From: Octopus vulgaris | Taxonomy: Eukaryota | Direction: 5' to 3' | Assembly (NCBI GenBank): GCA_951406725.2 | Contig: OX597822.1 | Coordinates: forward strand, 85,746,001-85,810,000 | Length of the DNA stretch: 64,000 nucleotides | Shown: in pieces, positions 16,090-62,227 of the stretch | Numbering within the stretch: the stretch's first letter is position 1 | Layout of the letters: every line of letters begins with the position of its first letter | Program-made: the position numbers and the translations under genes | Notes under the pieces: generated by a model | Database searches by the model: none | The model's input: only the letters and a program-made list of their open reading frames with translations | Told to the model about the DNA's origin: nothing

Positions 16090-17175
16090 AGACACATAAA
16101 CACAAATATATACATACAGATGCACACGTGTGTGTGTGTGTTACTTGATGATATCATCACTGTAGATATTCTATCTTTGCTGTTATACAATTGAATTTTC
16201 TCCTAATAAATATCAACACCAGCCATTCACTTGCTGGAATCGGTTCTGTTCCATTGTTATGTAGTTTTCAGTGCAAGAACCACTAGTTTCCATACCTGTT
16301 TCTAGTTCTTCATAACACGGTTCTCTTTTGGTGTCTCACCTAAGAAAATAGATTCACCATTGCCAAAATCCTTTGCTGTTTTAACTCAATTGTTTTGTTT
16401 CATAAGCAACATGTGTCGTCTGTTGTTGCCGACACAAGCTACACTATGCATGTGTGTGTGTGTGTGTGTATGGGTGTTTATGTATCTCTTTGTATGTGTG
16501 TGTAAGCATCAGTAATTGAAATACTGTTGCCGTCCTTTCTTCAAAGCCTGTTGAAGACTGACATTCTGAAATATGATTGTCCAAGAATGACATTGTTTAA
16601 GCAGTGAACTTGTTCCCCACCCACAAGATATTTTTTTGTGTGTGTCATCCTTTTTACAAGTCACTTTCTAATTTATAGAATTCTCTTGTGATAGACAAGT
16701 CTCTTGTAACTCATCTCTTTGAGGTAGAGGGAAGGACGGATGGAGTCGGAGGAAGGCACACACACACACACACACGAATGTAACAATTTAACATTTTACT
16801 ATCCAATAATTTGTGACATGAAGGCCGCAAGCTGTCACACAGGACAAAATGCTTGTTGGCATTTCATTTATCTTTATGTTCTGAGTTCAAATTCTGCTGA
16901 GGTTGACTTTGCCTTTCATCCTTTCGGGGTTGATAAAATAAGTTCCAGTCAAGCCCTGGGATCAATGTAAACAACTTTCCCCCTCCCCCAAAATGTCTGG
17001 CCTTGTGCCAAAATATGAAACCAATAGTTTGTGACATTCTTCTTGATTTGATGGACACACTGGAGATTAAGCCAAACATTACTGGCCACACACCGCACGG
17101 AAAGTTTAAGGAAAAAAACTTTGTATTTACATTATTTACATTTGATGGATATTTGTCCTCATTTTGTTTGTTGTT

Positions 17176-17220
17176 TACACAATGTTTCGGCTGATATACC
17201 CTCCAGCATCATCAGGTGTA
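17176..17220 (-). ncRNA. minimal type I hammerhead ribozyme motif
   Basis: Minus strand: tacac CTGATGA t gctg-gagggtatat-cagc c GAAA catt gtgta, with a perfect 5-bp stem I. Confidence 0.68.
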
Positions 17221-17255
17221 TTGGGAATGAGAACCCAGGTTTGAAATTTCCCCAA

Positions 17256-17301
17256 GACACCTGATGAAGGCTAGATGGTACATGAGCCGAAATGTTGTGT
17301 T
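17256..17301 (+). ncRNA. minimal type I hammerhead ribozyme motif
   Basis: gacac CTGATGA a ggct-agatggtacatg-agcc GAAA tgtt gtgtt. Predicted cleavage after 17296. Confidence 0.7.
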
Positions 17302-18213
17302 AGCAACAAACAAGATGAGGATAAATATCCGTCAAATGTAAATAATGTACATAATTCCTCTTAAATATAGAACTGTTTTAACTTTGTATAAAGTTAAAAA
17401 CTTGGAGAAACATGAAAAAAATCACAGTTTACTATGTTTTATTAATCATAATTATGTGTAAGAAAGTTATTATAACACGTTTTTTAAGATGTTTAACCAT
17501 TAGTATGAAGTTGGTAAAGCCTTGAATTGTATTTGAAAAATAAACTGTAGAGGATATCTAGATATTCCTTGCAGGGCATCATTTGAGAATCACCAGTCCA
17601 GAGAAAATATTAGAAGAGTGTGCATTCCTGCCATAGGTCATGTTAGGATTGGAGAAGACCGTGTCTATGTCTAGACAATGCATTAGAAGATAGGATGTTT
17701 CTGTTACTAGGACGTGTTGGGGCTAAATAAAATTATCAAGATTAATTCTGTGGTGATAAGGCAACATCTGAAATTCTTGCATCTGAGAACTTAAAACAGT
17801 GACAATATTGCAGTTAGAAAAGCTAATTGGTATGTCAAAGGGCTAGAGAAAACCCCATAACTAATTATTGTAAAGGGCCACAACTAAGCATGTTAGAGGA
17901 CCCTATCACATTCTCATCCTCATCATTTAACATCCACTTTTCATGCTGACCATGTGTTGGATGATTTGACAGGAGCTGGCAAGCTGCACTAGGCTCTAAT
18001 TGCTGGATGCCCTTCTTAACGCCAACCACTTTACACAGTGTACTGGGTGCTTTTTATGTGACACCAGCACAGGTGCTTTTTTACATAAGTATTGAATGTA
18101 ATAAAGATCCTATGTCAGAAGACCCCACAACTAAGACAATTAGTATATGTAGCAAAGGCCTTAATTAACAATGTTATAACCAGAGAAGACCCAAATGGCT
18201 AAATATCCTTTCA

Positions 18214-25245: not shown

Positions 25246-25375
25246 TCTTTGGTGTCCCTTGTGCTGCAATGTTGGCAACAATAGCTAGAACATTCCTTCA
25301 AGTTTTCGTTCCAGCAGCAGACTTCTAAGATACAAAAAAGTTTTTAAAAACTCTTGTGTTTCAGATGTGACATGA

Positions 25376-25606
25376 GCAGATATTAATAAATCAGGTATAG
25401 CTGATCATGTATGGAAAAATGGAGGCCACCTCTCCCTGTGGGATGAAGTTAAAATAATAGACAGAGAACACCACTGGAAAATACGAAAACTAAAAGAGGC
25501 AGCATATATGCTGGGACATAATAACCTCCTAAGTAGACCAAGTGCAGATATGAGTAGCATATGGGAACCAGTATTAAGGAAGGATAGGAAAATATTAGAT
25601 TTATGA
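25376..25606 (+). pseudogene. Penelope-like element GIY-YIG endonuclease C-terminal fragment
   Basis: Manual translation (no ATG, absent from the ORF track): ADINKSGIADHVWKNGGHLSLWDEVKIIDREHHWKIRKLKEAAYMLGHNNLLSRPSADMSSIWEPVLRKDRKILDL*. It shows the typical PLE pattern S-x-(I/V)-A-x-H...W...K-I-I-D-x-E...R-K-x-K-E-A. Confidence 0.8.
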
Positions 25607-25637
25607 GCCCTAAAAATTTCACTCCATAATTGCCCAT

Positions 25638-25710
25638 GGGTATATGGCATAGTGGTTAAGAGCACAAGCTATTAACCCCAAGATTCTGAGTTCGATTCCA
25701 GGCAGTGACC
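25638..25710 (+). other. tRNA-derived segment (Pol III A/B boxes) inside the Penelope terminal repeat
   Basis: A box TGGCATAGTGG and B box GAGTTCGATTCC. The acceptor stem does not pair, so this is not a real tRNA. Confidence 0.7.
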
Positions 25711-25769
25711 TGAATAATAATATCAAAAAATACCTTAGGAATGAGAACTCAAGTTCGAAATTTCCCCAA

Positions 25770-25813
25770 GACACCTGATGAAGGCTGGAGGGTATATCAG
25801 CCGAAATGTTGTG
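25770..25813 (+). ncRNA. minimal type I hammerhead ribozyme motif
   Basis: gacac CTGATGA a ggctg-gagggtatat-cagcc GAAA tgtt gtg. Core boxes are intact, stem II is 5 bp, and stem I is shortened by a downstream deletion. Confidence 0.72.
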
Positions 25814-26974
25814 ACAAATATCCGTCAAGTGTAAATAATGTAAATAATCCCTGATTTGATACTCGGTGAGAACTATCCAGAGACACATGCATGGACATTG
25901 CTGATTTATAGTCAACAACCTTCCATAATGTTCTATCAAACTTCCATGGGTTGGGTCAACCCAACCCATGGAAGTGGTAGACACTAGTTATAAAACCCAC
26001 AGGTTTTATAACTGCAAAGTTTACGACTCAGTTACACTCCTACATACATGTATGTATATAAAATGTAGGCAGGTACTTATAATATGTATGTAGGTGTGGG
26101 TGCAGACACATACACATACAGATTAGTATAGTAGCATTAAATATCACATGATCTCAAATGTATATGTAAACATTCGTACGCACACACAGAAGACACAGAG
26201 TCTATTAAAGCAAGCCCAAAATAGAGGCAAGTGAGCCGATAAAGTGAAGTGCAACTCCTTTTTCAGCAGCCATGACCCACAGAACCAACAACATTTCAGT
26301 CCACAGCTAATCTCAACAAAAACATTTATTACATTAGATTTTTGCAAGATATCCACCCTTACATAGAGTCTCATTAACTCATCTACCCCCCACCCTATCC
26401 ATATTATTTCCACCCTCTTACACTTGTATGTCTGAAAAAAGAAAACAGATTTGTCTGTGACACTTTAAGTGTTTTGAAACTGTGCAGTTCTTTGGCCTCT
26501 ATTTTGGCATTTCCTTCATATTTATACATGTGTGTGTGTGTGTGTGTGTATTGTGCTTATATCAATGCATCTATGTCTTGTGTGCTTATGTATGCATATA
26601 TGTATGAGTATTCGTAGGTATTTCCTTGGCAACAGGGAGCCAGACTCTGGCTCCAGTGTAGTAATAAAGACTCCCTTGTTGGAATTCAGACAGTGGTAAG
26701 TGTGTGTGTGTGTTTTTAAGAGACAGACAGACAGACAGAGGGAGAGAGAGAGAAAGAGAGAAGGATGGGTGTGTGTAAGAGAGAACACTTCTAAGTAAAC
26801 AGTTCTGTGTAGCAAAGGGTTTCTTGGTAAACATGGTTTCCATAGTGGGTTGCCTCTGTTTTTTTAATTTTTGTCAGTAGATTTAGGAAAGGTATGAATA
26901 CCACATTATTATATTGTCACCCCATTTTGGAAAGAAACAATATTTTATCATTATTATGGAAGCAATGACAAGCG

Positions 26975-36180: not shown

Positions 36181-36254
36181 CAGAATAGGTGTGTTGCTTT
36201 CACAAATTAACCAATAATAATAATAATAATAATGATGATGATGATAATAATAAT

Positions 36255-36620
36255 AGCCAGAATCGAGAAAGAAATAGATATAGCATGCCCAGCTGACGTG
36301 GTATGCGATAAGGAAGAAAGAAAAGTCGAGAGATATGACAGGTTAGCTTGGGAAGTTAAGCAGTTGTGGTCAATGAAAAAGGTAGCAGTAGTACCAATAA
36401 CTGTCGGAGCCCTGGGAACAGTGAGCAAAAATCTCGAGAAGTACATGGAACATATAGGGGCTGCAATAAGGGTGGAGCACTTGCAGAAAACAGCACTACT
36501 TGGAACCATTCGAATACTCCGGAAGGTGCTTGAAAAATAAGAGGTGTTGCCTTAATTCACTGGTAGTGAACAGCTAATACTGTAGTACATCTCCAGCATT
36601 AGAAGCTATGCAAAGGCAAT
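36255..36620 (+). mobile_element. 3' fragment of an RLE-type non-LTR retrotransposon (R4/Dong-like) in a (TAA)n tract
   Basis: IDIACP...KEERKVERYDRLAWEVKQLWSMKKVAVVPITVGALGTV...LQKTALLGTIRILRKVL* is the C-terminal part of a restriction-like endonuclease domain. (AAT)n lies on both sides. Confidence 0.78.
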
Positions 36621-44466: not shown

Positions 44467-44762
44467 TGGAGGCACATGGCCTAGTGGTTAGAGCAGCGGA
44501 CTTGCGGTCGAGGGTTCGAATCTCAGACCGGGTGGTGTGTGTGTTTATGAGCGAAACGCCTAAGCTCCACGCAGCTCCAGCAGAAGGTAGTAGCGAACCT
44601 CTGCTGACTCTTTCGCCACAACTTTCTCTCACTCTTTCTTCCTGCATCTTGCAGCTCACCTGCGATGGGCCGGCGTCCCATCCAGGTGAGGAACCTATAC
44701 GCCAAGAAACCGGGAAACCGGCCCTTATGAGCCAGGCATGGCTCAAGAAGGAACAAACAACA
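44467..44762 (+). mobile_element. full-length V-SINE-like element with TSD
   Basis: A box tggcctagtggtta and B box ggttcgaatc. V-domain-like cctgcgatgggccggcgtcccatccagg...gaaaccggga. (CAA) tail. TSD atacagac(c/t)ctga at 44454-44466 and 44763-44775. Confidence 0.8.
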
Positions 44763-60125: not shown

Positions 60126-60867
60126 TAAAACAAACAACTCTATTCTGGAAATATATTCTTGGTAAGAAGAACTTGACATAACCAAGTTAACCAAATAAGC
60201 TGGAGACATTCCATTTGTTTTGTTATGCAACAAAACACAACATAAAAGTAAAGCGTTTTGAAAAACCTTTCTATTAAAGACAGAAGGCCTGAAATTTGGG
60301 GCTGAGGCTGCAAGTTCATTGCACTGACCCCAGGCTCTCAACTGGTACTTATTTCAGTGACTCTGAAAGGGTGACAAGCAAAGTCAACCTTGGTGGCATT
60401 TTGAACTCAGAACATAAAGCCAGAAGAAATGCCAGGAAGCATTTTGTCCAGCGACCGATTCTGCTAACTCATTGCAGTGGTTCATTCCATATACTAAAAG
60501 CACAAGTCCAAAAGAAAATTATCTGGTGTTGGCTCTGGATATCGGGCTGAGTTCAGTCCTCTCAAGAGCAATGCAATAGCACATTAAATAAGATACAAAC
60601 CACTGCTCAACAATAAACCAATAATCTTCATACTGAGGAATGTTGGTTTGCATCTCATTTCATTATCTCCAACCAAATCAAATAGAAATAATAACAGATT
60701 AAAATGGACATTTCCAGGAATATCTATTGACTTATCCATGAAATGTAAAGACGAGTAGGTATAAATACTGCAAATGGACACCCTACCAATGAGAGAGAGA
60801 GTTCAAAGACTAATCTTAATAACAACAACAACCCAGACATTTAATTACGGAGCACTTTATGATAACT

Positions 60868-61158
60868 TATTTACCTTATTTACATTTGATGGATATTTGA
60901 CCTCATCTTGTTTGCTGTTAACACGTTTCGGCCAATATACCCTCCAGCCTTCATCTGGTGTCTTGGGGAAATTTCAAACCAGGGTTCTCATTCCTAAGGT
61001 ATTTTTCAATGTTATAAATTTTTATTATTCAGGTCAATTCGTGGAATCGAAGTCGGAATCTCAGGGTTAGTAGCCCATGCTCTTAACCACTACGCCATAT
61101 GCCCGTAAATAATGTAAATAATGTACATAATTCCTCATCTCTTAAATATAGAACTGTA
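60868..61158. mobile_element. Penelope-type insertion: inverted tRNA-head plus hammerhead cassette (60868-61104, minus) joined to the element 3' end (61105-61158, plus)
   Basis: Flanked by the 12-bp direct repeat tttatgataact (60856-60867 and 61159-61170). Ends in cttaaatatagaactgt like the 17.3 kb copy. tRNA-like head at 61032-61104. Confidence 0.8.
60920..60962 (-). ncRNA. degenerate hammerhead motif (core mutated to CAGAUGA)
   Basis: gacac CAGATGA aggctg...tggcc GAAA cgtgtt. It has a core substitution and a 3-nt deletion, so it is probably inactive. Confidence 0.55.
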
Positions 61159-62227
61159 TTTATGATAACTATTTGTAATCACTGGTTTTTGAGGTTTATA
61201 AAAAAGTTTTGGAGTCGATAAATTAAGTACCAGTCGTGTACTGGGGTTGATCTAATCGACTGGCCCTCTCTCCAAAAATTTCGGGCCTTGTGCCTAGAGC
61301 AGAAAAGATTATTATTATTATTATTACTATTATTATTATTATTATTATTATCATCATTACTCCGAGATTAACTTTGCTTTCATCCTTTTGGGGTTGATAA
61401 AATAAGTACCAGCCATGTACTGGGGTTAGTGTAATGAACAAGCCCAACCCACCAAAAACTTAAGGCTTCATGCCTCGAGTGGAAAGGATTGTTATTACCG
61501 TTACTAACAAGATTTTAAAATGTCAAAATTTTGGCAAGAGAGAGAGAGAGAGAGAGATGCATTAGAGTCTGGGAATTGGGGGTTTATTTCTGATGTTTAG
61601 CTCCAGTTTTATGGAGTTAATCAGGCAGGAAATAAATCTTGCTCAGGTGTCAGAACTTGCTAAATGGTCTGGAATGCTTAATATCCTGAAAAGAGAGCTG
61701 TGTAAGACAGGATCTGGTTAACTCCATAAGACTAAGGAAACCTTTCCTAAGCTTTATAGAGTTATTAAGATCCTGTAGAAACATACACACATAAGCACAA
61801 GCATATACACACACTCACTGACACATCTCTATATACCCTGCTCAACTACACAACCAGTTCGTTAAAGTATATACTTACAGCAGCACTATACTCAATAGGT
61901 GAGCAATGAGCCAATGAGTGGCACAACTTCCTAGAAACAGTAACCAACTCTTCCTCAAATCAAACCCTACTGCTTCAAATGTACATATTAGATAATGTAC
62001 ACTTAGATAAACTTTGCTTTGAAAAAAATCCAGTCATATCTGGAATGCGTTTTTCCTTTTTGTTTTTTTAATTATAGATTTGCTCCTCTGGGACAAGTGA
62101 CCTGGAACTAAATAGCAACAACAGGTTGGTAATGTAGGACAAGGTGTAGTCTAGGTAGGGTGGAGGCTGAGAGGTTTCTAGATACTGAAAAAAGACACAG
62201 ACATACACTTACATAAGTAAACTTACA

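Follow-up and report, generated by a model that had tools for sequence, protein, structure and literature searches.

A coding Penelope-like element (PLE) of the Penelope/Poseidon type took up, long ago, the head of a tRNA or SINE, placed between stop codon and hammerhead, and was amplified together with it. In at least three organisms this tRNA-like head is a constant component of the 3′ repeat of the coding family, the reverse transcriptase (RT) domain itself lying outside the joined contigs. The element was met as a 5′-truncated copy, copy A, of a high-copy PLE at 25367-25848 on the plus strand of the window, that is, of the whole 64,000-nucleotide stretch of DNA analysed here. How firmly is the head tied to the coding element? 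And what could a tRNA-like segment be doing behind the gene of a retroelement?

Copy A runs from a GIY-YIG endonuclease end through a 31-nt linker, the tRNA-like head and a minimal type I hammerhead to an AC-rich end (Table 1). Its frame corresponds to the final ~80 codons of a PLE endonuclease, with an in-frame stop near the beginning of the ORF piece and the true stop codon at 25604-25606. A GIY-YIG C-terminal frame had been proposed here by the earlier, sequence-only reading, and it is indeed a PLE endonuclease end: the piece is 63% identical over 71-74 aa to the terminus of P0019, an 806-aa RT protein that contains RVT_1 and whose last 122 residues are assigned at 0.96 to GIY-YIG clusters (21 of 30 matches in a protein atlas). 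Altogether 8 of 27 candidate proteins, RT proteins included, match the copy A frame at 50-66% identity. The RT domain is present in these homologues and none lies within the 64-kb window. By eye, the endonuclease of the homologues seems to show a CCHH motif, of which the window piece holds the two His only, and no additional Zn finger in the linker. Pfam gave no match in the 76-aa ORF piece, and the PDB search returned group II-type RTs only. By its identity to P0019 and the atlas assignment, copy A carries the C-terminal GIY-YIG endonuclease of canonical EN+ PLEs. At the other end, long loose ends lie behind 25848 in 196, 293 and 229 contigs of the public runs, and 21 nt are gone from copy A after 25813. 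Proteins P0002-P0033 comprise two related PLE families, one with an 806-aa ORF, at 50-66% identity to the window endonuclease end; a protein-alignment search for loci of related families gave 0 of 146, 1 of 28 (L001, weak at 37%) and 0 of 21 candidates. Immediately 5′ of copy A there is a 34-nt imperfect inverted repeat (25329-25362), and one X7 contig joins 25847 to 25329, which hints at a different locus structure in organism E.

Table 1. PLE features in the window, with the observations on which each assignment is based
Feature	Position	Strand	Basis
GIY-YIG endonuclease ORF, C-terminal end, 5′-truncated (copy A)	25367..25606	+	homology; X15 contigs extend the frame
31-nt linker, its end overlapping the palindrome centred at 25636/25637	25607..25637	+	depth far above flank
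tRNA-derived head; A box 25645-25655, B box 25690-25698	25638..25710	+	pattern, shuffles, fold
Spacer: AAT microsatellite of variable length, then conserved segment	25711..25769	+	contig loose ends at 25713 and 25722
Minimal type I hammerhead (by pattern and predicted fold), damaged in copy A	25770..25815	+	pattern search, fold, alignment
AC-rich end, main 3′ boundary of the PLE family	25816..25848	+	contig loose ends
Copy B: begins with the head, followed by spacer, damaged hammerhead and 3′ end; no ORF	60868..61104	-	sequence comparison
Inverted 3′ end and ~35-nt tail (53 nt), attached to copy B at its 5′ end	61105..61157	+	alignment
Copy C: from the spacer on; hammerhead, 3′ end, tail	17221..17379	+	alignment
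Copy D: hammerhead and 3′ end in inverted orientation, placed head to head with C	17124..17225	-	alignment

That the head belongs to the element and is no chance SINE insertion had been argued from two window copies. Two copies alone are insufficient for this, and it is the depth over the junction in several public runs, together with 8 of 24 bridging contig pieces, that bears the claim out. Between 0.49 and 0.61 of the sampled window words were found in 14 DNA or unlabelled runs from five organisms. Contigs were mapped for 4 of the 24 listed runs, namely X1, X3 and X7 (three organisms) and X15; runs X17-X20, with word shares of 0.04-0.08, were left out of the evidence. Depth, given as a sum over contigs that is no copy number and dips where copy A departs from the majority, is 8-33 in the flanks (X1, X3, X7). 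In the junction bin 25620-25639 it exceeds the flank by factors of 2,554 (X1), 4,081 (X3) and 9,570 (X7), and for 25620-25629 a strict lower bound is 667-2,310 times flank depth. The hammerhead stands at 7-11 times the depth of the ORF end. Where the head starts, no less than 15-25% of the depth, and probably a third or more, continues upstream. Aligned contig pieces span <250 nt of the stretch at most. Among the best 32 of 62,871 pieces, 24 come from X1, X3 and X7, and 8 of these 24 hold the stop codon and the A box on one contig, each with 19-28 differences from copy A. Because the junction has a depth hundreds- to thousands-fold above the flank and is bridged by distinct contigs, the head is regarded as fixed. 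What kind of element was amplified? At all four listed non-synonymous sites where copy A differs from the family majority, the majority has the residue of the homologues (agreement 8/8, 8/8, 7/8 and 3/8), and therefore it was from a coding element that the amplified template derived. Of the 11 listed sites that separate copy A from the majority, seven are synonymous, three of these being CpG decay. Seven X15 contigs continue the endonuclease frame upstream of 25367; contigs of this run, whose type (RNA) is a guess, cover all parts of the element, and as contigs reveal neither strand nor start nor level, they are not taken as a sign of expression.

The head of copy A has perfect A and B boxes 45 nt apart, the spacing of class I tRNAs. 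The combined A+B box pattern matches twice in the window against none in 100 shuffles, the second match being the head of an unrelated SINE. The cloverleaf has decayed, with the acceptor and D stems of copy A unpaired. ARAGORN calls no tRNA for the head; the Infernal search that the sequence-only reading had recommended for the hammerhead, run as Rfam cmscan, gave neither a hammerhead nor a tRNA in the window copies at E<=5-10. The variable-loop/T-arm motif of the head falls inside an ARAGORN tRNA in 52 of 73 viral loci, and against these 52 motif-selected viral tRNAs the 5′ half scores 7-9 at best, no better than the shuffled maxima of 9-11. The head may resemble tRNA-Arg. In the window it is always accompanied by the hammerhead (2/2), the B box of copy B being altered. 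With A and B boxes inside a tRNA-derived 5′ head, the unit has the head of a SINE. As the cloverleaf is lost yet the boxes are kept at tRNA spacing, the likeliest role of the head is that of an internal Pol III promoter. Elsewhere in the window, at 44470-44760 on the plus strand, there is a tRNA-headed SINE-like element without a hammerhead; its A and B boxes are 37 nt apart and it has 66% identity to the copy A head.

The hammerhead downstream consists of stem I (25770-25774), the core CTGATGA (25775-25781), a bulged A (25782), a stem II of 6 bp (25783-25802), GAAA (25803-25806) and a loopless stem III, with a predicted cut after 25810; core and GAAA, like the stop at 25606 and the head start at 25638, lie exactly where they had been placed before. 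The window has three matches to the core pattern, where 0.03 would be expected on average. The bulged base after A9, G10.1-C11.1, the long stem II, the 5-bp stem I and the palindromic 15-16 all fit the published minimal hammerhead, and by pattern and predicted fold it is a minimal type I hammerhead in a PLE pLTR. None of the four hammerheads in the window is intact, each having damage to the core, stem II or stem III. The one at 25775 has one stem III base changed and its stem I cut to 3 bp by the 21-nt deletion, and in the one at 60920 the core is altered and 3 nt are missing from the cleavage site. The family majority has a palindromic stem III, with 78-80% of depth at 25807 (X1, X3, X7). 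An alignment fold of the four copies gives 11 pairs, one with a two-sided change, which is no real covariation support; a search of metagenome, viral and prokaryote contigs with a 23-nt pattern from the hammerhead flank turned up no locus. Would such a ribozyme cut? For a hammerhead of this minimal class, lacking loop III, no cutting was observed as a monomer (PMC4209133), and that of anole Poseidon depended on protein and could be dispensed with for insertion in vitro (PMC11167929). In view of these precedents, the octopus hammerhead is probably active as a dimer or when helped by protein, and would be inefficient as a monomer. Efficient self-cleavage of the short RNA that had been envisaged is unsupported, this minimal class having failed to cleave as a monomer.

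The four PLE pieces of the window represent three insertions: A, B and C/D. A second tRNA-spacer-hammerhead copy had been announced, and it was found at 61104-60868 on the minus strand, 78% identical (copy B). It begins at the equivalent of 25636-25638 of copy A, within one target duplication, and its insertion is flanked by a 12-bp duplication (61159-61170 and 60856-60867). C/D lie within a 10-bp duplication (17117-17126 and 17380-17389) and carry the tail of copy B, at one end only. According to two studies, inverted 5′ copies with a one-sided tail of 30-40 bp are a PLE signature (PMC8557442), explained by two RT start sites and the extension of both target strands (PMC11167929). Inverted 5′ copy, one-sided tail and target duplication are present in two of the three insertions (B and C/D), and copy A has neither tail nor clear target duplication. 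Copy A is the single ORF-linked copy in the window; copy B starts at the head and is non-coding, which copy A is not. A retrozyme in the defined sense, one of the two terms that had been suggested, is unsupported, since head-to-tail units occur in none of the three insertions of the window. One X3 contig of depth 325 (~18x flank) joins the 3′ end (25843) to an inverted head piece and then to the head (25637), and is possibly a tandem, retrozyme-like array.

How might such a unit spread? We lean towards a mechanism in which the captured Pol III promoter makes short head-hammerhead RNAs that are reinserted by the PLE protein. A Pol III start at ~25630-25638 would yield a short RNA that contains the hammerhead and ends in the AC-rich part. 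There, if anole Poseidon is a guide, reverse transcription by the PLE protein would begin at two sites ~35 nt apart. Both nicked target strands would then be extended and the two cDNAs joined head to head (a mechanism taken from PMC11167929), which would create the inverted copy, the one-sided tail and the target duplication of B and C/D. Run-off of the cDNA where the Pol III transcript has its 5′ end would leave ORF-less, SINE-like copies such as B, and longer RNAs would give copies such as A. The coding element and its SINE-like offspring would thus have a single terminal repeat in common.

Which observations separate this reading from its competitors? An unrelated SINE inserted behind one PLE copy at this locus would suit the single ORF-linked copy in the window, but the window has the head only together with the hammerhead, and the multi-copy junction in three organisms, bridged by distinct contigs, refutes this reading. 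It is improbable that the head sits on a non-autonomous chimera, be it a PLE-tailed SINE on an ORF end or an internally deleted element, whose autonomous partner is headless. No contig piece spans head to RT, which would agree with it (the pieces being <250 nt); however, the majority keeps the homologue residues at the four non-synonymous sites, the endonuclease frame extends upstream in seven contigs, and the 5′-to-3′ depth gradient fits a long element undergoing truncation. Could the head instead be the promoter of the whole element, with Pol III reading a pLTR-ORF-pLTR tandem and hammerhead cleavage producing a cap-independent mRNA? It has been stated that pLTRs provide the promoter for a downstream copy (PMC6765202) and that self-cleavage can induce cap-independent translation (PMC13725137), and a T4 terminator is absent from the sense strand of every window copy. 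Such absence over 483 nt is, however, expected in 30% of shuffles and so not significant, and in PMC10886601 Pol III-driven retroelements measure 100-1,263 bp and autonomous partners are argued to need Pol II, which leaves this possibility very improbable.

More serious, and still unlikely, is the view that the head is a fixed but inert relic in the 3′ UTR of the PLE, transcribed by Pol II, and that the ORF-less copies are ordinary 5′ truncations clustered by palindrome fold-back or RT stalling. The Penelope of D. virilis has a LINE-like internal promoter (PMC2377424). Depth rises smoothly over the head, being 81-88% at 25637 and 78-89% at 25605 of that at 25641, with no sharp step. The start table of the public-run contigs has no pile-up of molecule starts, and none of the listed loose ends is near 25638 (1,400 further ends stand outside that list). 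In addition, a palindrome occupies 25633-25640, with its centre at 25636/25637. An X3 joint of depth 325 folds back exactly at this centre, so the joint hotspot may be structural. Copy B, which starts at the head, and this hotspot are also what speaks for a start by Pol III, expected at just this place. Five of the seven listed opposite-strand joints end at 25630-25642 (best 15 of 131 joints); the clustering has p 8e-6 under uniformity and 3e-4 when any 13-nt window is allowed, four of the five joints coming from one run and the listed ones having been picked by support. Against an inert relic stand the boxes, perfect and correctly spaced although the stems have decayed. Likewise, most of the clustered joints, and copy B, link the head start to distant 3′ parts with no local fold-back.

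How does the octopus family compare with known systems? It shares with canonical EN+ PLEs the C-terminal GIY-YIG domain, the minimal hammerhead after the ORF, the inverted 5′ copies, the one-sided tail of 30-40 bp and the variable target duplications, as described in PMC4209133, PMC8557442 and PMC11167929, and differs in having a tRNA-derived segment with A and B boxes between stop codon and hammerhead. The accessible text of these papers makes no mention of a tRNA segment, and in that of PMC8557442 ‘tRNA’ occurs once, on selenocysteine. A small-RNA-derived Pol III promoter in a terminal repeat is also the hallmark of the TRIMp3 elements (Cassandra with 5S, Helenus with tRNA, and Ajax), in which the boxes are kept, the structure is lost and a SINE insertion into the repeat is the proposed origin (PMC10886601). 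In contrast, those are non-coding LTR elements with PBS/PPT whose autonomous partners are expected to lack the shared repeat, according to the same paper, whereas here a PLE pLTR with a hammerhead sits on a coding end. A term search of that paper found no ‘Penelope’. Membership in TRIMp3 was rejected: there are no two LTRs with PBS/PPT, and the repeats are single or inverted, PLE-tailed and ORF-linked. The Schistosoma Sm-alpha and Sj-alpha repeats likewise place a Pol III promoter before a type I hammerhead, but are tandem and non-coding with no PLE ORF reported in the available text (PMC6765202); compared by description only, the octopus units are dispersed and PLE-linked and have a minimal hammerhead. 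Animal non-LTR retrozymes are short units with a hammerhead, for which an origin from PLE pLTRs and the use of PLE proteins have been suggested; they are defined as tandem units of 150-450 bp (PMC7229834 and bioRxiv 10.64898/2026.07.22.740005), while the window has no head-to-tail units. A term search of that preprint gave no matches for tRNA, Pol III, promoter or octopus.

Octopus has tRNA-derived SINEs of its own, with tRNA-derived heads and in the same host group. They were reportedly described by Ohshima and Okada in 1994. Of these, OR1 and OR2 are CORE-SINEs (PMC4758252 and PMC4824008); a third family lies outside the comparison and may overlap with the PLE head. An ordinary tRNA SINE with a LINE partner was rejected as a description, the 3′ part being a PLE pLTR with PLE-type ends and no LINE-shared tail. 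Literature searches, with Repbase/Dfam outside their scope, returned no tRNA-derived segment in a PLE repeat and no PLE-mobilised SINE. The annotation of O. vulgaris attributes 6.83% of the genome to PLEs, in 190 families, and its supplement contains neither ‘hammerhead’ nor ‘ribozyme’ (PMC13282606). A family this abundant has probably been picked up by automated libraries already, though its structure may lack a description.

Two other frames of the window deserve a word. One, at 36211-36540 on the plus strand, presumably resembles the C-terminal end of a non-LTR retrotransposon protein and has no Pfam match above the cut-off. The other, at 1923-2327 on the minus strand, is an exon that we assume to belong to a ZMYND11-like gene; the PLE repeat copies sit upstream of it. 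It is likely coding, with a SAMD1-like winged-helix (Pfam PF21524, E 1.5e-12).

What would all this mean for PLEs? The literature treats SINEs as passengers of LINEs, and it places Pol III promoters within terminal repeats in non-coding LTR elements (TRIMp3). Tentatively, and with some doubt prevailing, the terminal repeat of a coding PLE may be a working Pol III unit that spawned a large class of SINEs moved by the RT of Penelope and not of a LINE. SINE and autonomous partner would then be united in one sequence, and PLEs would be linked to hammerhead SINEs such as Sm-alpha. If true, both ideas would extend to a third class of retroelements, and a SINE would have been caught arising from its partner's own repeat. 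A defined short RNA would become available for questions about the role of the PLE hammerhead and the template needs of the PLE protein, to which the Poseidon in vitro assay would be applicable. For the octopus genome, it may mean that an abundant PLE family is divided between the labels ‘SINE’ and ‘Penelope’.
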